DNA of 64,000 nucleotides from Candidatus Aegiribacteria sp. (lineage in GTDB: Bacteria > Fermentibacterota > Fermentibacteria > Fermentibacterales > JCC-6): positions 81,405 through 145,404 of the forward strand of contig JAUVEU010000001.1 in NCBI GenBank assembly GCA_030594645.1, given 5' to 3'. Positions 32,215 through 54,419 of the stretch are shown here, piece after piece. How positions within the stretch are numbered: the first letter of the stretch is position 1; every line of letters starts with the position of its first letter. A model generated the notes under the pieces. It saw only the letters and a program-made list of their open reading frames with translations. It was not told where the DNA came from and ran no database searches. A program made the position numbers and the translations under genes.

Positions 32215-33297
32215 TTACAGGTTTTCGGAAACGCGTCTGATAGAAACTGGTGACCCTTCTTTGACTCTGAACTGGCCTTCGACAATCACAGAATCAGTTA
32301 TTTCAATCCCGGATAGTATCTGTGCCATTCCACCACTTCTTATACCTATCTCTACAGACCTTATCGATGTAATCCCATTCTCCACAACAGCAACATAAAA
32401 ACCGGAGCCTGTTCTTCTTAAAATATTTTCGGGAACCAGTAGAACATCTTCAACGATCTCGGTTATGATACATACTCTTCCGCTCATTCCCGATCTCAGT
32501 CTGCCATCCGGGTTGTGAAATGTAATTCTCGTTGGAACTTTCCCGCTTACTGGATCCACAGAACTTGATACAGCAGTAACAATTCCAGGAAAGGATTCAC
32601 CGTAGAGCACCTGAACTGTCACATAGGCAGGAAGCCCAACGGAAAGGTCGAAAAGGTAGATTTCAGGGAGCATTATCTGAGCGGATATTTCAGATGTATT
32701 TGAAATACTGAGTAATGGCTCTCCTGAAACAGTATTGCCTGTTCGAGCCCAGATCCTTCCAACTTTTCCTGAAAAAGCCGCCGTTACATAAGCACTGGAT
32801 TGGCTGCTTCTGGTAAGAGCGTAGACTGCATACGCCTGATTAAGATTTTCCCTGGTGATCGATGCTGCTGCCCTGGCATCTTCCATTTGCTGCTCACTTA
32901 CAGCACCTGCCTGGTAAAGTCCAGATAATCTGTCGAAGGTTGTCTGTGCGTTGTCAGCATATGCTTTTGCAACACTGACAGAGGCGTTTGCAGCAATGGT
33001 TTCAGCATTAACTCCCTGATCGGAATCAAGCTTCACAAGATGCTGCCCGGCAGTCACCGAGTCACCTTCCACGACAAGAACCTCTTCGATCCGCCCCGGC
33101 ACCGTTGCATAGACAAGAGTCTCTTCTATTCCTTCGAGCCTTGTGTCCACATATATGGCTGCGGATATGGAGGAAATCTCCGGAGATGCAACAGAGACAT
33201 TTATTACAGGCAAATCCAGTTCTTCCTCTGATCCACATGCTGCTATCATGAGAATAAGAATTAAGACTGATCTCAAACGGAAACTGGTTCGTTTCAT
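32215..33297 (-). CDS. Efflux RND transporter periplasmic adaptor subunit (MFP).
   Basis: 360 aa lipoprotein (MIAACGSEE). Biotinyl/lipoyl-like and beta-barrel MFP domains are present. Confidence 0.85.
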   Translation of the reverse strand: MKRTSFRLRSVLILILMIAACGSEEELDLPVINVSVASPEISSISAAIYVDTRLEGIEETLVYATVPGRIEEVLVVEGDSVTAGQHLVKLDSDQGVNAETIAANASVSVAKAYADNAQTTFDRLSGLYQAGAVSEQQMEDARAAASITRENLNQAYAVYALTRSSQSSAYVTAAFSGKVGRIWARTGNTVSGEPLLSISNTSEISAQIMLPEIYLFDLSVGLPAYVTVQVLYGESFPGIVTAVSSSVDPVSGKVPTRITFHNPDGRLRSGMSGRVCIITEIVEDVLLVPENILRRTGSGFYVAVVENGITSIRSVEIGIRSGGMAQILSGIEITDSVIVEGQFRVKEGSPVSIRRVSENL

Positions 33298-34622
33298 ATA
33301 TTCTCCTCCGGTTCTGTGTTGAACTGGAGATCCGGGTCCAGTATACCCATAGCCCTTGCAACATGTCCTTCGGCAATTCTCAGTTTGTAAAGAGCTGAAG
33401 CTAAGTTTGTTCTTGCAGATGTAAATGCCAGAAAAGCCTGATCCATATCGAGTCTTGTGATTGTCCCGGCTTCGTATGAAACTATCGCTATCTCCGTGGA
33501 TTCCTGTGCCTGTCTCAGAGTGTATGATGTGGCATCTACACTCTCTTTTGCCTCTATCAGACTGTTCCAGGCCTGCAACAGAAACAATGAGGTCGCCTGC
33601 CTGAGAGATCCTGCATTAGCTTGATAAGCCAGCCGATCTGCCCTGGCGGAATTGTATCCGGCAATATCATTCAATCCATTGAAGAGAGGTATCTGGATCA
33701 TCACAGAGGCGCACAGGTTTCTCTCATAATCATCTGAAGTAAAATGCCAGTCATCACGCATTGCATGGTAGTTAAAATCGGTTTGAAGGATAAGAGAAGG
33801 ATAGAAAGCAGCTGAAGCCATTGACACCTGCGCGTTCCCTATTTCTTCCATTATTGCTGCGGTTACCAGGTCAGGATTGCTATTCAACATTATTTCACAG
33901 GCTTCTTCATACGTTTCAGGCAGAATGAAAAACGGAACGGTTTCCAGACTACCATCCGGTTTCACAGACACATCATCGGATAGACCAAGCGCTACTGCAA
34001 AACTGGCTATTGCATGATGTAATCCGCTTCGAGCCGCGATTTCATCAGGTTTCCTGTTTTCCCAGGCTACTTCACTTTGAAGTAATTCAAACCGTGAGAT
34101 AATGCCTGCTTCAAAACGGGCCTGTGCTACTTCAAAACCCTCCTCAGCAATAGTCAAGGCTTCTTCTGATACCATAACCATTTCCTGTGCGAGAAGAACT
34201 CCATAAAATGCTTCTATTACGTCAAGAACAACATCCTGTTCTACAGAAGTTAATTGACTGACAAAGAGGTTTTCAGTCTCAACCGACAACCTGTAACCGG
34301 CAGGACCCTGAGGAATGAAAAGGGGGATATCCACGCTTATCCCTGCGTATGAGACATATTCAGAACCCATGGGAATCGAACCCATCCCGGCAACCTCAAT
34401 CACCTGAACATCATAGTCGCGTATGAAACTAAGATTCGCATTAACAGAAGGGAGGAACCAGAGTTCAGCATTGCGTCTGTCCCAGGTAGAACTCTCCAGA
34501 GTACTCCTTGCTGCCATCAGGTCATTACGTTTCTCAAGTGCAGCTCTGATTGATTCCTCCAGCGTAAGAGAATGTGCCGTTCCGCATATAAGCAGGAATG
34601 TCAATATATCGGATGATTTCAC
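33294..34622 (-). CDS. TolC-family outer-membrane efflux protein.
   Basis: TolC repeats are present. The start is called at GTG 34622..34620 with a GAAGAAGG Shine-Dalgarno site, sharing one base with the RND TAG stop (TAGTG) and giving the signal peptide MKSSDILTFLLICGTAHS. The longer ORF to 34736 overlaps the RND gene. Confidence 0.85.
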   Translation of the reverse strand: MKSSDILTFLLICGTAHSLTLEESIRAALEKRNDLMAARSTLESSTWDRRNAELWFLPSVNANLSFIRDYDVQVIEVAGMGSIPMGSEYVSYAGISVDIPLFIPQGPAGYRLSVETENLFVSQLTSVEQDVVLDVIEAFYGVLLAQEMVMVSEEALTIAEEGFEVAQARFEAGIISRFELLQSEVAWENRKPDEIAARSGLHHAIASFAVALGLSDDVSVKPDGSLETVPFFILPETYEEACEIMLNSNPDLVTAAIMEEIGNAQVSMASAAFYPSLILQTDFNYHAMRDDWHFTSDDYERNLCASVMIQIPLFNGLNDIAGYNSARADRLAYQANAGSLRQATSLFLLQAWNSLIEAKESVDATSYTLRQAQESTEIAIVSYEAGTITRLDMDQAFLAFTSARTNLASALYKLRIAEGHVARAMGILDPDLQFNTEPEENI

Positions 34623-37600
34623 TACCGTACCTTCTTCCATCGACCAAGTAATGAGTATAGAACTGGAAGAACGACAAGAGACAGAACAGTTGAGACAATA
34701 AGGCCACCTGAAACAACCCTGGCCATTGGAGCCCACATTCCACCGCTTTCACCGGTTCCGAGAGAAAGCGGCAACATGGCAAATATTGTTGTCATGGCAG
34801 TCATCAATATCGGGCGTATTCTTGCCTTTGCCGCGAGAATGACTGCTTCTGTTGCATCAATTCCATTTTTCCTCTGTCTGTTGGCAAAGTCCACAAGTAC
34901 TATTCCATTGTTAACCACGATTCCTATCAGCATCAGAACACCGATCAATGCAGTAACTGTTAGAGTTGTTCCTGTGATTAGAAGAGCCCAGATAACACCA
35001 ATGAAGGCAAATGGAACAAGAAATATGATAATGAACGGCTCCAGGAAGGATTCGAACTGGCTTGCCATAATCATATAAACCAGGATGCCGGCAACAAGAA
35101 TAGCGATAATCATTCCTTTGAATGATTCTCTCTGTTCAGCCGTCTCACCACCCAGTACTACTCTGTGATCGCCCAGATCGAGGGTGTCGAGCATTTCCTC
35201 TACATCAGACACAACAGAGCCCAGAGAGCGGTCTTGAATGCCGCATCTGACGGTCGCCAGCCTGCTTTGATTCTCATGTTCTATTGCCCTGGGTATTAAC
35301 CTGCTCTCAAAACTTCCCCAGACATCCAGGGGTGAGCCCAGAATTGTCAACCCGAGTATTTCTTCTCTGCTCATTACGAAACTGCTGTCAATCTGAAGAT
35401 GAATATCAATTTCCCTGCCGGCTTCGTAGAGTACCGAGGGATTTGACCCAAGCAGACCCAGTTGGAGTTCCACTGCAAGATCCGCACTTGATAAATTCTG
35501 AAGTCTGAGAGTTACATCATTCGGTACGAAAGCAATCTGAACAATTTCCTTTTCCAGCGTTGAGTGCAAATCAACAACACCTTTGATATCTTCCATTTCC
35601 CTCATTACAATTCCTGCTGTTTCTCTGAGATCATCAAGATCGTTTCCGAAAATATCTATTTCAATCGGCCAACCCCCTCCAAGGGGATCTCCTGCATTGA
35701 ACTCAACATTGATACCGGGAATTTCTTCAAGAGCTTCCCTCAGTAAATGCTCATACTCCGCCATCACTCTGGATCTGCTTTCACTGTTTGAAAAAAAAGG
35801 CCTTACCTCTATTTCGTTCGTGGCACTTGTTCCTCCAAAAAGCGCAGCATTGCCTGTATTCCTGCCAAGGGTTGTGTAAATGTGTTCCAGGTCAGCAGGC
35901 TCAATTGCAGATATGAGTACTTCCTCGATTATTCTTGCAGTACTGTCGCTTGATTCAAGCGTTGTACCGGTTGCCCTGCTGATGAGAATTTCCATTCTTC
36001 CTTGATCAGCAGTCGGCATGAACTCTGTGGGGATAAATCCCAACATGAACAGCGACGCGATAAATACTGCAACTGTTGTTAAGAGTACGGATAGACGGTG
36101 TCCGGTTGCCCACTCAACTAGAAGTGAATAGCGCTTCTCTAAAGATTCAAATGCGCTGTCCAGGATATTCCCTGCCCCGGTTTTCCTGTACGATTGCAGT
36201 TTCCTCATCCTCGACGAGAAGAGGGGGATGAGGGTAAGAGCCACAAACAGCGATACTGCAAGACTGAAACTTACAGTAAGGCTCATATCTCTGAAAAGTA
36301 AACCAACGATACCGGGCAGTAAAAGAATTGGGATAAATACGGCTATTGTTGTCAGTGTCGAAGCTGTTATTGCCATTCCGACCTCACTTGCTCCCTGGAT
36401 CGAGGACTCAACAAGATTCAGGTTCCGTTCGCGGAGTCTGTGAATATTTTCAAGCACTACTATCGAGTTATCCACAACCATCCCGATTGAAAGACCAAGA
36501 CCTGCAAGAGATATGAAATTAAGATTCACACCGACGAAATACATCGCAGCAAATGTGGCGGCTATCGACAAGGGCATAGAGAGTGAAATAATTATTGACG
36601 CACCCCAGGATCGCAAAAACATGAAAAGTATGAGAGCAGCCGCAACAATCGACAGTATGCCGATCGTAAAAAGATTACGCATGGATCGTCTGATGAAATC
36701 CCCGAAACTGCTGACTATCTGTATTTCGATCTGACCGCCATACGAAGAATCGATATTTTCAAGAGTTCTTTCAACATTATCGCAAACTTCTGTTGTATTG
36801 GAACCTGGTCCTTTTCTGATAACGCAGAAAATGGTCGGTTGTCCGTCAAGCCGCGTATGGGTTTCTCTTTCTTCGTGACCGTCATAAACATGGGCTATGT
36901 CTCCGAGCAGTATGTTTTCTCCTCCGGCACACTGTCCTACAAGAGTATTTCTGATCTGATCCACACTATGGAAACCTGACTCGATTGAAAGCGTCAGCGT
37001 CAAACCTCCGGTTTCCAGATCTCCTGCGGGAGTATCTGTTCCAAAAGCGCTGAGTAACCGCTCCACATGGGTCATCGTAAGACCATATGACGAAAGCAGT
37101 ACAGGATTCACATCAACACGTACCTGTCGAACAAAACCGCCTTGAGTTGAGATATGACCAACCCCCTGAGTTCTGCCGATTATCGGCACTATCTCTTCTT
37201 CGACTGTCCAGCGGAGATCTGTCATACTCATACAGTCGCTGGAAAAGGAAAGCTCCAGAATTGGAGCATTGTCAGAAGCCAGAGCGAAGATGTAAGGATC
37301 AAGGGCCTCTGACGGCAGCTGAGATTTTACTTCATCAAGGACTTCTCGAATCCTGTCTTCCGACTCTTTCATATCGGCAGTTGAGCTGAACTCAATTGTC
37401 ACCATGCTTGTTCCGCTGGAGGAAACCGAGTTAATGCTTTCTACATCCTCAACCGTGGAAACAGCACTTTCAATCACTTCCGAGATCAGAGTTTCTATTT
37501 CTTCCGGACCCGCGCCTCTCATTGACGTTATAACCATAACAGTGGGAAGCTGTATTTCCGGGTAAAAGTCAACGCCAAGATTGAGAACGCCAAACACCCC

Positions 37601-45331: not shown

Positions 45332-47158
45332 TTAGAACTGGTAATTAAGTCCGACAGCAGCCCTCCAGTAACTTTGTCTGTCATCCCTGGAATAGAAAGT
45401 CCTGGTTACGCGGAGGGACAGAATCCCATTATTCAGATTCATTCTCGTCCGAAGCCCGACATGGTGCATGTGCTCGATCAGCGAAGAATTACCGGAGGCT
45501 ATATAGTTCCTCCGAGAGTACTCCCATGCATAACTGGGAGTGAGCCCTATTTTTCCGCCGACATGAAAACCCATATTGAAGGTAATGGTATTGTTAATTA
45601 CCTCCTCGGATCTGCTGAAAACCGAGTTGTCAAAACTTCCCTGATCCTGGAATCTGAATGTGTTGGAAACACCCAGAGTAGTGCTGTCTTCTGCCACTCT
45701 CTGGAACGATGTTGTTGAAACAAGTCTTCTGAACAGCAGGTCTGATCCTGAAGTACCAATCTCCGGGAAAAGAAATGTTGTGTAATCAGCGCTGATCTTG
45801 ATTGATTCCTGCAGTGTCCAGTTACCCCCCGGAAAATACCTGAATCCGGGGTTGAAACTGTATGTGGATGAAATCTTGCTGTTCGCGGATTGCTCCGCCA
45901 TCAGATAAACAGTTTTTCTGCTCTGTCCCTGGATACTCGCATCCAAAGTTACTTTACTGCTGAGCGGGATTTCCGCGGAAAGTGAGAGAACTTCCCTCAA
46001 TTCATCGCGATCGTTGTTATCCCTGTATATATTCCCAAAGGTATCAGTCCATTCTCCGAATGTATCAAACCTGTTGAGCTGAATCAACCGCTCAAATGTA
46101 ATCCGGCTGTCCCCAGGAGTGTATTGAAGGTTGGAGGAAAAGACTCTGTCATCACTGATATCGTATATATCGTAAAGTATTGTATCCGGGGGAGCTGTAC
46201 GCTTTCTATCTTTGTGACTGATCGAACGCGAGAGAGACATGGTCAGTTGAAGATCATCAATTATCTGATATCGCAGGGAGGAGGAAATATTACGCCTTCG
46301 CTCCAGTCTGTCACGTACATCACCCTCTGAACTGGTGGAGTCAGGGTCATCCTCTTCCCAGAAACGATCCATGTAATCCCATCCGGTAGTAATCTCCATA
46401 CTCAGATACTCAAATGGCATTGGTACTACAAAAGAAAGATCACTGTACCAGTCATTCTGCCAGAGACTCTGGGCCGAATCATGATATGCGGTGGACTGCC
46501 TTGATGCTCCAGCCTGAGCGGTAAGATTGCCGCCGTTGAAAACGCTCGGAAATCCGTAACTCAGCCTGGCGGTAAGCTTATCCCTTCCCGTATCCGTCTG
46601 ATGCCCGCGTGTTCTTTGTTCTCCGAATGTAAGATTCCCGTTAAGAGTACTGAAAATGTTCTTGCTAAGGGAGATGTCGACACCGCTCACTCCTCCCTGA
46701 TCATGACCCGATATTGTGCTGTCTCCGGATGGATTTATGTAATCCACGAAATGGGCTCCAAGTTTCATATCAATCGACAGCCATGATGCCGGAGAATAAC
46801 GTATCTGACCGGAAGTAGTATTATTCAGTTGATCCCGAATCATTGTGCCATATCTCTCTTCAGTGCTGATGTTTCTGGAGAGATTTATTCCGAACTCCAA
46901 TCCGGGTCTGGGCTGAAAGGTAACACTCGCGGATCCGACGCGACCTTCTAGAAATCTATGGAGGTCCAGATTCTTCTGAGCTGAAAATGAAGCGCTGGCA
47001 TTCATTGTGATCCTGGATGTGAGCTGATGCACCAGTGATATTGAATTAATAAGTTTACTGCTTTCTTTGAATTGCTCAAGCTCGATGTCATATCCCACTG
47101 AAACAGCGTTGAGTACTGAAACAAACAGAATAAGCAGTAATACGACTGATTTCTTCAT
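45332..47158 (-). CDS. Large outer-membrane beta-barrel protein, hypothetical.
   Basis: 608 aa with a signal peptide, amphipathic beta-strands and a C-terminal GLNYQF. Confidence 0.55.
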   Translation of the reverse strand: MKKSVVLLLILFVSVLNAVSVGYDIELEQFKESSKLINSISLVHQLTSRITMNASASFSAQKNLDLHRFLEGRVGSASVTFQPRPGLEFGINLSRNISTEERYGTMIRDQLNNTTSGQIRYSPASWLSIDMKLGAHFVDYINPSGDSTISGHDQGGVSGVDISLSKNIFSTLNGNLTFGEQRTRGHQTDTGRDKLTARLSYGFPSVFNGGNLTAQAGASRQSTAYHDSAQSLWQNDWYSDLSFVVPMPFEYLSMEITTGWDYMDRFWEEDDPDSTSSEGDVRDRLERRRNISSSLRYQIIDDLQLTMSLSRSISHKDRKRTAPPDTILYDIYDISDDRVFSSNLQYTPGDSRITFERLIQLNRFDTFGEWTDTFGNIYRDNNDRDELREVLSLSAEIPLSSKVTLDASIQGQSRKTVYLMAEQSANSKISSTYSFNPGFRYFPGGNWTLQESIKISADYTTFLFPEIGTSGSDLLFRRLVSTTSFQRVAEDSTTLGVSNTFRFQDQGSFDNSVFSRSEEVINNTITFNMGFHVGGKIGLTPSYAWEYSRRNYIASGNSSLIEHMHHVGLRTRMNLNNGILSLRVTRTFYSRDDRQSYWRAAVGLNYQF

Positions 47159-47970
47159 TGCAGATTCTCCGCGAGTCTGATAAACATCTCGGGTTTTAGC
47201 TGCTCTGCCCTCAGGCCTGGATCGATTCCTGTTCTGGTCAGAATCTCCAATGACTGATCACGGCCTAAAACCGGCGTCAGATTGTTGAGAATGGTTTTCC
47301 TCCTGGAAGAAAAAGATATATTTACAATTCTTCTGAATTCACTGAACAGCTCGCGAGAAACCATCGGCTCGGATCGTTTCTCAAGAACCACAACCCTTGA
47401 ATAAACCGCAGGAGTCGGATAAAAATCCTCCGGGTCAGCATCAAGAAGTGTGCGTACAGTATAATACGGCCATATCTTCAAAGCCAGTTTTCCGTACTGC
47501 TTTCCCCCGTCTAACGTAGACAGCCTTATGGCAACTTCCCTTTGAAGCATCAGGACTGCTTTCTGTACCTGATCAAAGCCCTCTTCAAGCATTCTGAACA
47601 GTATTGGAGAAGATATCGAATAAGGAAGATTACCCGCAACTGTATGAAACGGAAATCCAGGCAAAGCTTCGGGATTCACAGTGAGAATATCACCTCTTGT
47701 CACTGAAAGGGCTTCATCTTTGAACCTTTTTCGGAGAACATCAACCATTTCAGGAGAAATTTCTACTGCGGAAAGAGATCCGCAGCGACCAAGCAGTTTT
47801 TCAGTAAGAGCACCTAAACCGGGACCGATTTCAAGAACGCTTCCGGCCGTTGAGACTTCCTCAGCGATCCTTGCAGCAATATAACCGTTAACAAGAAAGC
47901 TCTGCCCGAGTTTTCGATTCGGGGTAACTCCTGCTTTCTTCAGAAATTGACGCAACTCTGTGATAAACAT
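47155..47970 (-). CDS. rsmA: 16S rRNA (adenine1518/1519-N6)-dimethyltransferase.
   Basis: The KsgA motif LGQSFLV and the SAM-binding site VLEIGPGLGALT are present. The start is called at ATG 47970, which overlaps the upstream TAA (TAATG). The longer ORF to 48114 overlaps the upstream gene. Confidence 0.88.
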   Translation of the reverse strand: MFITELRQFLKKAGVTPNRKLGQSFLVNGYIAARIAEEVSTAGSVLEIGPGLGALTEKLLGRCGSLSAVEISPEMVDVLRKRFKDEALSVTRGDILTVNPEALPGFPFHTVAGNLPYSISSPILFRMLEEGFDQVQKAVLMLQREVAIRLSTLDGGKQYGKLALKIWPYYTVRTLLDADPEDFYPTPAVYSRVVVLEKRSEPMVSRELFSEFRRIVNISFSSRRKTILNNLTPVLGRDQSLEILTRTGIDPGLRAEQLKPEMFIRLAENLQ

Positions 47971-49217
47971 TATCCTCTGATCCTCAGTGGAAGGTTTATC
48001 TTCAAAGCGTAAGCAGCAACTGATTTCATATCTGCTCCGGGATAGCGAACAGCTGTAAGCCTGGTTCTGCATACTTTCCTTGAAAGCTGAATGAATTTCT
48101 GCAGATTGTCCCACGCTGAATCATTTTCCGGGACGCATACAGCATTGTATTCTTCCATATCAGAAGCGTTGAGACTTATACTGACATCATCGAAAGGTTC
48201 GAGAAGCCCGAGGGTTTCTTCAGGAGACAATCTCTCCAGACATAGACCGTTTGTATTGAGCCGAACAGAGAAACCTTTTTCCGCAACTGTTTTCGCGAGA
48301 GCTTGCAGAAGCTCCGGCCTCATGGTTGGCTCACCGTATCCGCAGAAAACGATTTCTTCAGCCCATTCCGGCTGAAGCGCACCGACAATGTCCTTGAGTG
48401 CCTTGAAAGAAGGCTCTTCGTGGTGCTTCAGATAATACCCGCCTATACCGTCGGTCCTGTCTTTAACACAGAAAAGGCAATGATTAGTGCATCTGCCTGT
48501 AATATTCATGTATATCCTGTTATAGAGCATGTATACAAGATCCGTTCTGGCCACAGGCGCGAGTTGAAAAGCACGAAGCGAATTATCAAGAAGTATCTTC
48601 GAAGCAGAAAGCATATCCATATTCCACAAATCTGCAAGGACACCGGCCGTGTGTATAACATAGGAAGGTTCATTTCTTTTTCCACGAACTGGCTCAGGTG
48701 TCAGGTAAGGGGCATCTGTTTCAACAAGAACCTGTTCTTTCGGCAACAAACCTGCCAATTTCCTGAGTCTGTCATTCCGCCTGTATGTGAGCGGCCCTGC
48801 GAACCCTATGAAGAACCCTCTATCAGCTGCCTCCTGAGCAACCTTATCAGGTCCGGTATAGCAATGCATAATTACCGGTACTTCGGGATTCTCGCCCAGA
48901 ACATCCAGGACAGTTTCTTCTGCATCTCTTGAATGCACTATCAGTGTCAATCCGAAAATCTCCGCCAGATGAATATGTTTCTCGAAAAGCTCAATCTGGA
49001 GCGAAGCGGAAACCCTCTTATGAAAAAAGTCCAGTCCTGTTTCTCCCACAGCGATAACTCCGGGGTATAGTACTGTCCTTGCGATGTCAGTGAGCATATC
49101 AGCAGAGTTGATATCTGCTTCATTCGGATGGATTCCGGCAGCTGCGAATACCCCCTGATACTTCCCGGATAATTGTGCAGCCTTCCGACTGCTTTCCGGT
49201 GTTATTCCCGGAACCAT
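47970..49217 (-). CDS. TatD-family hydrolase fused to a TatD-associated radical SAM domain. The true start lies upstream of the first ATG, and the coding region likely extends to about 49313-49328.
   Basis: The N-terminal part has the TatD fold (GIHPNEAD, ETGLDF, HSRDA, MHCYTG). The C-terminal part has a radical SAM motif (CTNHCLFC) resembling the tatD-linked rSAM family. The in-frame upstream sequence encodes the TatD N-terminal motif GFFDTHCHL with no ATG, GTG or TTG start. Confidence 0.75.
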   Translation of the reverse strand: MVPGITPESSRKAAQLSGKYQGVFAAAGIHPNEADINSADMLTDIARTVLYPGVIAVGETGLDFFHKRVSASLQIELFEKHIHLAEIFGLTLIVHSRDAEETVLDVLGENPEVPVIMHCYTGPDKVAQEAADRGFFIGFAGPLTYRRNDRLRKLAGLLPKEQVLVETDAPYLTPEPVRGKRNEPSYVIHTAGVLADLWNMDMLSASKILLDNSLRAFQLAPVARTDLVYMLYNRIYMNITGRCTNHCLFCVKDRTDGIGGYYLKHHEEPSFKALKDIVGALQPEWAEEIVFCGYGEPTMRPELLQALAKTVAEKGFSVRLNTNGLCLERLSPEETLGLLEPFDDVSISLNASDMEEYNAVCVPENDSAWDNLQKFIQLSRKVCRTRLTAVRYPGADMKSVAAYALKINLPLRIRG

Positions 49218-49315
49218 TATCCTGGTAACGTTGAACTTGTCCGCATTTGAAAGAACACGCTCAAGATCATCATCATATCGCTCATCACAGAGATGACAGT
49301 GTGTATCGAAAAAAC

Positions 49316-50590
49316 CTACATTCTCCAGATCAGATCCTCCCTGGCAGGTCCTGTGGAAATTGCTTTGATGGGTACTCCGATAAGCTTCTCAATGAACAGT
49401 ACATACTGTTTCGCATTTTCAGGCAGAGTTTCCCAGTCCCGTTCTCCGGAAATGTTTTCTTCCCAGCCGGGCAGAGTCTCGTATACAGGGGTATGATTCC
49501 CCAGTCTTGCCCCTGTTTCGAACAGTGTGAGATCTGTTTCAGGGTCAAGTACGTACTTCTTGCAGACTTTCAGTTCCGGTATACCGCTCAGCACATCCAG
49601 AAGCGTTAGAGCAGTCCAGGTGCATCCATTTATCCTGGCCGTGTAATTCGTCAGAACGGCATCAAACCACCCGCATCTTCTGGGTCTTCCTGTAGTTGCG
49701 CCATATTCGTTTCCCTGCTCTCTGATTTGTTCGCCGAGCGCGCAGGTAAGCTCAGTGGGAAACGGTCCGTTCCCTACCCTGGTGGAATAGGCTTTCATGA
49801 CTCCGACAACTTCATCAATCCTTACCGGTCCTATCCCGAGACTGGTGCATGCCGCTCCCGCTACACACGAACCGCATGTAACAAAGGGATATGTGCCATG
49901 ATCAGGATCAAGAAGAGTTCCCTGTGCTCCTTCAGCGATAACGGAACCATCATTGTCCAGTATTCTTGCCAGAAGAAGAGATACATCCTCAGCATATTCA
50001 ACAAGTTTCAGAGATATACTGTTGAAAATTTCCACTTCACTGTTGAGAGATCTTATCTCATCTTCAGATAGATCAAGTGTTTTCAGGCAATCTTCGGTTA
50101 TCAGCGCGGATTTCTCCAGGAATATGTCCGGCATCGCAGCATCCTCCAGCCGGATACCTTTCCGCATGAATTTCCGGACATATGTCGGGCCGATTCCTCT
50201 ATATGTAGTTCCTATTGCTGAAACGCCTCTTTCACCTTCATTTTTTTTCTCGAAGTACTTGCCAGCAGGATGTACAAGATGCACTTTTCCGGAAATAGAA
50301 AACCTGTCCGAGATCGAGATTCCGTTTGTTTCCAGTGTCTTGATTTCATCCATCAGGGCTGCAGGGTCCAACACACATCCGGCGCCAATGATTCCAAGGG
50401 GATCAGGGTGAATCAGTCCGCTCGGAAGCTGGTGGAGAGCAATCCTGCGCCCTCCTGTTTCAACGGTATGCCCCGCGTTCGCACCCCCTGAAAACCTCGC
50501 CACTGCATCAGCGGTTCCAGAAAGGTGATCAACCATTTTTCCCTTGCCTTCATCTCCCCATTGCAACCCTGTTAATATGGTCGCCGGCAT
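49316..50590 (-). CDS. purA: Adenylosuccinate synthetase.
   Basis: The protein starts QWGDEGKGK and has the GGANAGHTV P-loop. 424 aa. Confidence 0.92.
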   Translation of the reverse strand: MPATILTGLQWGDEGKGKMVDHLSGTADAVARFSGGANAGHTVETGGRRIALHQLPSGLIHPDPLGIIGAGCVLDPAALMDEIKTLETNGISISDRFSISGKVHLVHPAGKYFEKKNEGERGVSAIGTTYRGIGPTYVRKFMRKGIRLEDAAMPDIFLEKSALITEDCLKTLDLSEDEIRSLNSEVEIFNSISLKLVEYAEDVSLLLARILDNDGSVIAEGAQGTLLDPDHGTYPFVTCGSCVAGAACTSLGIGPVRIDEVVGVMKAYSTRVGNGPFPTELTCALGEQIREQGNEYGATTGRPRRCGWFDAVLTNYTARINGCTWTALTLLDVLSGIPELKVCKKYVLDPETDLTLFETGARLGNHTPVYETLPGWEENISGERDWETLPENAKQYVLFIEKLIGVPIKAISTGPAREDLIWRM

Positions 50591-54332: not shown

Positions 54333-54419
54333 TGGTGCGAGAGGGGGGACTTGAACCCCCACAAGCCCAGCTTACCAGATCCTAAATCTGGCGCGTCTGC
54401 CAATTCCGCCACTCTCGCA
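54333..54419 (-). tRNA. tRNA-Leu (anticodon TAG), encoded CCA, long variable arm.
   Basis: The reverse complement folds as GCGAGAG acceptor / GGCGG..AGACGCGCC D-arm / CCAGA-UUUAGGA-UCUGG anticodon arm (UAG) / long variable arm / GGGGG-UUCAAGU-CCCCC T-arm / CUCUCGC-A-CCA. Confidence 0.85.

Follow-up and report, generated by a model that had tools for sequence, protein, structure and literature searches.

A CUG codon embedded in purA as the probable start of a TatD-radical SAM fusion gene in Candidatus Aegiribacteria and related Fermentibacteria

Conserved non-canonical start codons are found in a number of bacterial genes, such as Escherichia coli infC, which starts at AUU and is autoregulated through initiation factor 3 (IF3), and pcnB, which likewise starts at AUU. 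Other genes overlap the gene preceding them and are translationally coupled to it, through junctions of the ATGA or TAATG type or through longer overlaps, as with trpB-trpA and the restart at the lysis gene of phage MS2. Here a gene with likenesses to both groups is described from Candidatus Aegiribacteria sp. (contig JAUVEU010000001.1 of assembly GCA_030594645.1, positions 81,405 to 145,404; this 64-kb stretch is referred to as the window). The gene, termed tatD-rSAM, encodes a TatD-family metal-dependent hydrolase fused to a radical S-adenosylmethionine (SAM) domain, and its translation probably starts at a CTG codon inside the last codons of purA, the gene that precedes it.

As in infC and pcnB, the putative start of tatD-rSAM is a weak near-cognate codon, preceded by a good Shine-Dalgarno sequence and kept although a single point change would give a strong one, with low or regulated expression as the expected outcome. 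It differs in being CUG rather than AUU and in lying inside the coding sequence (CDS) of the upstream gene. As in coupled gene pairs, both the candidate start and its Shine-Dalgarno sequence fall inside the upstream open reading frame (ORF), the stop codon of which is a few nucleotides from the start, and tatD-rSAM is in turn coupled to the following gene, rsmA, by a TAATG junction. The differences are the restart codon, CTG, and the length of the overlap, 13 nt as opposed to 1 or 4.

The protein itself falls into a described family. Solved TatD structures, comprising those from Staphylococcus aureus (6l25 and 2gzx), Thermotoga maritima (1j6o) and E. coli YcfH (1yix), match the tatD-rSAM product with E values of 1e-37 to 1e-44 and target-normalised template modelling (TM) scores of 0.87-0.94 over the whole barrel. 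Their xDTHxHL strand occupies residues 3-9, and residue 7 of the query aligns to their residue 3; unlike the tatD-rSAM product, these enzymes consist of a single domain, without a radical SAM module. tatD-rSAM belongs, as an intact gene, to the TatD/TIGR04038 fusion family, which is known and catalogued; TIGR04038 is the NCBIfam model 'TatD family nuclease-associated radical SAM protein'. It passes the curated cut-offs of both TIGR00010 and TIGR04038 and retains the HxH and CxxxCxxC motifs along with the E, H, H and D residues. No difference from that family is seen at the protein level, and only the non-canonical, purA-embedded start in the Fermentibacteria clade sets it apart. Literature searches on TIGR04038 and on start codons in Fermentibacteria found nothing, and one on TatD-radical SAM fusions returned only generic annotation papers; with no study of the family among the results, it appears to be biochemically uncharacterised.

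The start region and its conservation

The tatD-rSAM frame ends at a TAA (47972-47970, minus strand) and has its first ATG at 49217-49215, from which a protein of 415 aa would be read. It is open 5' of this ATG as far as a TGA at 49391-49389, and the upstream part translates as ...SDLENVGFFDTHCHLCDERYDDDLERVL...; with residues numbered from the CTG codon as residue 1, the first ATG is Met38, and the frame runs from the TGA into it as ...QGGSDLENVGFFDTHCHLCDERYDDDLERVLSNADKFNVTRIM(38)VPG.... No ATG, GTG, TTG, ATT, ATC or ATA lies in frame between the TGA and Met38. The purA gene ends ...GAG GAT CTG ATC TGG AGA ATG TAG, with the TAG at 49318-49316, and the proposed start is formed from the C of the Ile codon ATC and the TG of the Trp codon TGG. 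Both this CTG and its Shine-Dalgarno sequence (Table 1) lie within the last eight purA codons, and the first base of the purA TAG is 7 nt past the CTG. The sequence 5' of the first ATG contains no good Shine-Dalgarno motif (AGTTCAACGTTACCAGGATAATG); other genes of the window have GGAGG-type motifs ahead of them at a similar distance. The original prediction had noted the lack of a canonical start before the His-Cys-His codons, the CTG, the late first ATG, the Shine-Dalgarno sequence inside purA and the position of the purA stop, and all of these proved to be as described; a run of six T residues that it had placed at 49308-49313 is in fact at 49314-49309.

Table 1. Features of the tatD-rSAM locus, in window coordinates
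Feature	Position	Strand	Basis or detail
tatD-rSAM CDS as proposed	47970..49328	-	452 codons from CTG plus TAA stop; open frame, domain matches and AlphaFold2 model
Proposed non-canonical start, CTG	49326..49328	-	Sole near-cognate in-frame codon after the Shine-Dalgarno sequence; kept in 13 loci
Shine-Dalgarno sequence GGGAGGA	49335..49341	-	6 nt 5' of CTG (spacer TCTGAT), within purA Arg-Glu-Asp codons
purA/tatD-rSAM overlap, 13 nt	49316..49328	-	purA TGG AGA ATG TAG; tatD CTG GAG AAT GTA G
First ATG (Met38), start in public gene calls	49215..49217	-	Inside barrel strand 2 (residues 34-40 in the model)
TatD/YcfH-type TIM-barrel hydrolase domain, residues 6-255	48564..49313	-	TIGR00010 (6-255), PF01026 (7-255), Foldseek
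His-Cys-His codons, residues 10-12, HxH metal-binding motif of the TatD/amidohydrolase fold	49293..49301	-	Aligns to IDTHVHL (residues 3-9) of PDB 2gzx
TatD-associated radical SAM domain, residues 264-451	47976..48539	-	TIGR04038, 153.7 bits against a cut-off of 129.7
CTNHCLFC, CxxxCxxC [4Fe-4S] cluster motif, residues 280-287	48468..48491	-	C280, C284 and C287 invariant (60-sequence alignment)
purA (adenylosuccinate synthetase), upstream gene holding the tatD-rSAM Shine-Dalgarno sequence and start	49316..50590	-	PF00709, E = 7e-149
rsmA/ksgA (16S rRNA adenine dimethyltransferase)	47155..47970	-	PF00398, E = 1e-48

The same arrangement is shared by 13 loci of the clade, drawn from independent assemblies, one of them a high-GC genome (the window, WIN, with L081, L082, L084, L085, L091, L092, L093, L095, L096, L097, L098 and L101). 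Protein identity ranges from 47 to 100% over the 13 loci and is 47-89% for the assemblies independent of the window. In every one of them purA ends ...ATC TGG AGR, followed by at most one further codon and a stop, and the CTG formed across ATC and TGG shares the tatD frame, which runs on without a stop as far as FDTHCH. The CTG-to-Phe spacer measures 6, 10, 13 or 19 codons depending on the locus, always a whole number, and no ATG, GTG or TTG precedes the motif in 10 of the 13. The 13-nt type of purA/tatD overlap is likewise seen in relatives.

More distant loci vary in how tatD begins. In L099 and L100 (43% identity) the clade CTG has been lost, and these loci are still without ATG, GTG or TTG before ADTHCH. 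Their purA has a different C-terminus, ending …GTG AGG CTG GAC TGA (positions ~1430-1470), and a plausible start is offered only by a CTG situated 5 nt past GAGG, which shares bases with the purA stop in the form CTGA. The gene would seem to have here a second CTG start, positioned independently of that in the clade. In two other members of the Fermentibacteria, L001 and L086 (48% identity), purA is still upstream and tatD lies in another frame, with a TTG start of its own in each. A control set of approximately 80 TatD or TatD-radical SAM loci from other phyla, taken from among the matches listed in the contig scan, all have an ATG, GTG or TTG 1-24 codons (mostly 2-10) before DxHxH. The anomaly that the original prediction had proposed to check against orthologous start positions was borne out, with the in-frame CTG in 13 of 13 clade loci and canonical starts in the outside loci.

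The codons between the CTG and Met38 bear the marks of coding sequence. Over the 35 codons from FDTHCH to VPG, comparison of the window with close relatives gave a nonsynonymous rate (dN) of 0.05 and a synonymous rate (dS) of 0.50, a ratio of around 0.1, and the median dN/dS over informative pairs was 0.22. Judged by these ratios, the 35 codons upstream of the first ATG are under purifying selection, which in turn argues that they are translated.

The start signals themselves vary little. The last purA codons, AGG GAG GAT CTG ATC TGG AGA, are nearly frozen, with ATC in 13/13, GAG in 12/12 and CTG in 12/12 loci, and the Arg of the Shine-Dalgarno region is encoded by AGG or AGA among relatives, never by CGN. 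Conserved purA residues just upstream are free at synonymous sites, with Gly as GGA, GGC, GGT or GGG, Pro as all four of its codons and Ile as ATT, ATA or ATC; background usage in the window is 0.37 for ATT, 0.33 for ATC and 0.30 for ATA among Ile codons, and 0.37 for GAG. A change of the critical ATC to ATA or ATT would be silent in purA and would provide tatD with an ATG or TTG start, and neither is seen in the 13 loci. This suggests, as an argument and not a proof, that the weak CTG is itself maintained by selection.

The TatD-radical SAM protein

The TatD part of the product is matched from end to end by its family profiles, but only if the ORF is read from 5' of the first ATG. The TIGR00010 match, of 242.9 bits against a cut-off of 206, covers profile positions 1-252 of 253 and places position 1 at residue 6, the first Phe of FFDTHCH, and PF01026 scores 244.9 bits (cut-off 27; E = 1e-72) over positions 1-253 of 253. 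H10 and H12 of the His-Cys-His motif are present, and an alignment of 60 sequences shows no variation at E96, H132, H155 or D205; by homology to solved TatD structures and from general knowledge of the fold, these residues and the HxH motif are the putative metal ligands. In the C-terminal part, the TIGR04038 match spans profile positions 2-189 of 192, PF04055 matches with E = 2e-14, and the SAM-binding glycine-rich motif FCGYGEP has F328, C329, G330, G332, E333 and P334 invariant in the same alignment.

An AlphaFold2 model built on this alignment had a predicted local distance difference test (pLDDT) score of 96.1 and a predicted TM (pTM) score of 0.92. Barrel strand 1 is formed by residues 6-8, helix 1 by residues 22-31 and strand 2 by residues 34-40, meaning that the 35 upstream codons (residues 6-40) comprise the first three structural elements of the triosephosphate isomerase (TIM) barrel. 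A product started at Met38 would consequently lose the first two of these elements, the greater part of strand 2 and the ligands of the HxH motif. The TatD half is predicted to adopt a TIM-barrel fold: Foldseek aligned it to 6l25 and 1j6o with a target-normalised TM-score of 0.93 and a root mean square deviation of 1.5 Å. The C-terminal half matched only generic minimal radical SAM cores (TYW1, the pyruvate formate-lyase-activating enzyme, viperin, MoaA and RlmN), and therefore no specific chemistry can be assigned to it.

That a TatD hydrolase and a radical SAM module share one ORF, as originally predicted, is clear from the matches to TIGR00010, TIGR04038, PF01026 and PF04055 in a single frame, and the score of the C-terminal half against TIGR04038 (153.7 bits against 129.7) places it in the tatD-linked family that had been proposed for it. 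The accompanying statement that the module is normally encoded by a separate gene did not hold. A search with the radical SAM half alone against 1.8 billion cluster representatives (50%-identity clusters) returned 454 at E <= 1e-10, and among the best 150 of these, which were sized, 79 were as long as fused proteins (at least 420 aa) and 56 had the length of a stand-alone module. Both Pfam domains are present in all but one of the 120 best homologues, and fused genes occur in Nitrospirota, Geobacter, Ignavibacteria, Aquificota, Elusimicrobia, Zixibacteria, Planctomycetota, Clostridia and others. The type given to TIGR04038 by NCBIfam, 'subfamily_domain', fits a module that is also found within larger proteins.

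CUG initiation weighed against other readings

The reading that we consider probable is that translation of tatD-rSAM starts at the CTG, directed by the Shine-Dalgarno sequence and probably coupled to that of purA. The lack of a canonical start, the Shine-Dalgarno spacing and the conservation among orthologues are each as would be expected if the CTG were the basis of the N-terminus. The strong GGGAGGA would position the 30S subunit 6 nt 5' of the CTG, which initiator tRNA would read as formylmethionine (fMet), and ribosomes ending at the purA TAG would probably re-initiate there. The predicted product has 452 residues beginning (M)ENVGFFDTHCHL, that is fMet-Glu-Asn-Val-Gly-Phe-Phe-Asp-Thr-His-Cys-His; its N-terminal tryptic peptide would be (f)MENVGFFDTHCHLCDER or ENVGFFDTHCHLCDER, that of a product started at Met38 MVPGITPESSR. 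Since CUG is a weak initiator, low expression is expected, and the arrangement would set a low, purA-linked level for the enzyme, part of which would pass on to rsmA translation by way of the TAATG junction. The make-up of the locus, its persistence in the clade, the purifying selection on the upstream codons and the need of the barrel for them are shown here; from these we infer that CTG is itself the initiation codon, that coupling contributes and that low expression is the selected outcome.

Several observations weigh against this reading. CUG initiation was found to reach 1-2% (range 0.02-3%) of that at AUG in E. coli (Hecht et al., bioRxiv 10.1101/063800), and was undetectable in another E. 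coli reporter (preprint). Local mRNA structure at the start is nothing special (z = 0.45), leaving only the Shine-Dalgarno sequence and the stop codon to mark the site. The conserved C-terminus of purA, R-E-D-L-I-W-R, in which Trp has a single codon, constrains the same bases as the CTG and Shine-Dalgarno sequence, and the clade loci share ancestry and are not independent, such that the conservation of these signals is partly confounded. Finally, L091 (GTG, at -4), L098 (TTG, at -1, encoding the Leu of ELFDTHCH) and L101 (TTG, at -13) each carry a canonical codon 3' of the CTG and ahead of the motif, meaning that the CTG need not be the start used in those lineages.

The last point, the weakness of CUG in E. 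coli reporters and the presence of the purA stop within the first four tatD codons would also suit initiation within 49328-49311 by some route other than standard decoding of CTG, whether start-codon-independent re-initiation or use of another unconventional codon, with the downstream GTG and TTG codons as the real starts where they occur. However, the segment in the window (GAG AAT GTA GGT TTT) offers no other near-cognate codon, and the invariant C of ATC would go unexplained unless the CTG triplet mattered; this alternative is regarded as unlikely. Initiation at the first ATG is very unlikely. It would yield a truncated, non-hydrolytic TatD remnant of 415 residues joined to the radical SAM domain, with the FDTHCH match as a decaying relic, and in its favour Met38 is the first canonical start codon and the one chosen by gene callers in dozens of relatives. 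Yet the position is not conserved, being Leu, Ile or Met among relatives; in the many with Leu or Ile the callers merely took a TTG. The ATG, moreover, has no good Shine-Dalgarno sequence before it. The codons that this reading would discard, and with them the start of the barrel and the HxH ligands, evolve with a dN/dS of around 0.1 and are in frame and stop-free in all relatives. The same purifying selection, and the confident modelling (pLDDT 96) of these codons as strand 1, helix 1 and strand 2, dispose of the suggestion in the original prediction that the gene is N-terminally defective.

A start for tatD would be unnecessary if a -1 frameshift near the end of purA produced a PurA-TatD-radical SAM polyprotein. 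The tatD frame is indeed -1 relative to purA and in the window is open for 20 codons 5' of the CTG, and internal Shine-Dalgarno-like sequences stimulate frameshifting in known cases, dnaX and prfB. The overlap, however, lacks an X XXY YYZ slippery heptamer; L101 and L102 have an in-frame stop two codons 5' of the CTG, which leaves only the non-slippery ATC ATC TGG AGG TAA; and the sister lineages L001 and L086 carry tatD in other frames with their own TTG starts, making this explanation highly improbable. Transcriptional slippage on the T run was considered separately and rejected, as the run falls 3' of the purA stop and relatives such as L084 and L093 do not have it. That the missing start codon is an artefact, through an indel in the T run or mis-assembly, or the mark of a recent pseudogene, has a probability close to nil. 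Homopolymer runs are prone to error, and the assembly that holds the window is of metagenome type, but the identical junction, T run and frame included, is found in independent assemblies of other samples (L081, L082 and L083), distant relatives without the run keep both the frame relation and the start-less layout, and working by hand showed that adding or removing one T creates no start. A pseudogene is at odds with an ORF intact throughout and with invariant catalytic residues. Hence, of the three explanations offered by the original prediction, initiation at CTG or coupling to purA is the one favoured by the comparative evidence, and a hidden indel and a defective gene are rejected.

If CUG initiation is accepted, an analogy with the AUU of infC raises the speculative and distinctly unlikely idea that the codon acts as a fidelity sensor, placing tatD-rSAM and the TAATG-coupled rsmA under negative feedback. 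Loss of KsgA in E. coli raises initiation at CUG, AUA and AGG reporters (PMC6868393), as the preprint with the undetectable CUG signal also states. Under such a scheme, under-methylated or immature 30S subunits resulting from low RsmA would increase CUG initiation and with it translation through tatD-rSAM into rsmA, restoring RsmA. Were this true, the TatD-radical SAM enzyme would be tied to 30S maturation or quality control.

Gene neighbourhood, annotation and implications

In order, the genes of the locus are clpX, one for a YsxC-type GTPase, purA, tatD-rSAM, rsmA and a conserved ORF of ~608 aa without a Pfam match, and this order is kept in those clade relatives whose contigs were read. The rsmA ATG (47970-47968) overlaps the tatD-rSAM stop as TAATG, and overlap or close abutment of the two genes (TAATG, ATGA, TGATG or a 3-nt gap) is kept in all relatives, phylum-wide. 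The C-terminal Arg-Gly codons of tatD-rSAM, AGA GGA, make up a Shine-Dalgarno-like AGAGGA 2 nt before the rsmA ATG; a longer, GTG-started rsmA ORF listed from 48114 is spurious. The 608-aa ORF (45332-47158, minus strand) overlaps the end of rsmA by 4 nt and has a signal-peptide-like N-terminus (MKKSVVLLLILFVSVLNA); ORFs of 602-608 aa occupy the same position in relatives with contigs extending that far. The 608-aa product may be a so far uncharacterised protein of the outer membrane, translated together with the operon. Rfam and tRNA scans found nothing near the tatD-rSAM locus, and the sole RNA gene detected in the window is a tRNA-Leu (anticodon TAG; 54333-54418, minus strand).

No long ORF of the window other than tatD-rSAM has a start-less 5' region that goes unexplained. 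Unusual initiation throughout the genome was considered, and other start-less genes were sought in the window, none of them convincing. The start-less leaders of two ORFs, 32215-33615 and 45332-47257, both end at an ATG. In the former (minus strand, stop-to-stop) 106 start-less codons are followed by an ATG preceded by GGAGGAG, and the leader, open by chance, probably overlaps the 3' end of the upstream gene 33294-34748; in the latter, the ATG opens the signal-peptide-like N-terminus.

In public databases the nearest homologues are named as Candidatus Fermentibacteraceae, Aegiribacteria or Fermentibacteria, and the HxH motif is missing from the calls of approximately 40% of the best 120, a few of which are cut by contig ends. 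Typical calls for the clade are 415-439 aa long and start MVPGIS..., that for the window itself (P0001) being the 415-aa call, an exact look-up of which gave no match. The calls are truncated because gene callers do not allow a CTG start. Across NCBI, ENA, JGI and Logan, calls for the clade (P0001-P0120) range from 393 to 439 aa, and some are named just 'radical SAM protein'. The 'M' called in L098 is the TTG Leu codon of ELFDTHCH, and the start called in L084 is a TTG at the Leu of FLIPG.

What is new here, namely the conservation throughout the clade of a probable CUG start within purA, with the systematic mis-annotation that results, is of modest novelty and changes no major concept. As annotated publicly, the TatD domain of the clade looks defective, and functional or metabolic inference from such records would be wrong. 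The locus offers a natural case in which a CUG start would have been long kept, even though a single synonymous change in purA gives ATG or TTG, and might serve as an example for studies of start-codon selection and for the improvement of gene callers. As a nuclease-type TIM barrel is joined to a minimal radical SAM domain and encoded with the YsxC-type GTPase gene and purA to its 5' side and rsmA to its 3' side, the position and composition of the enzyme suggest a nucleic acid substrate, possibly rRNA or tRNA. The fixed place of the gene between purA and rsmA, together with its coupling to both, may help in guessing the role of the family.

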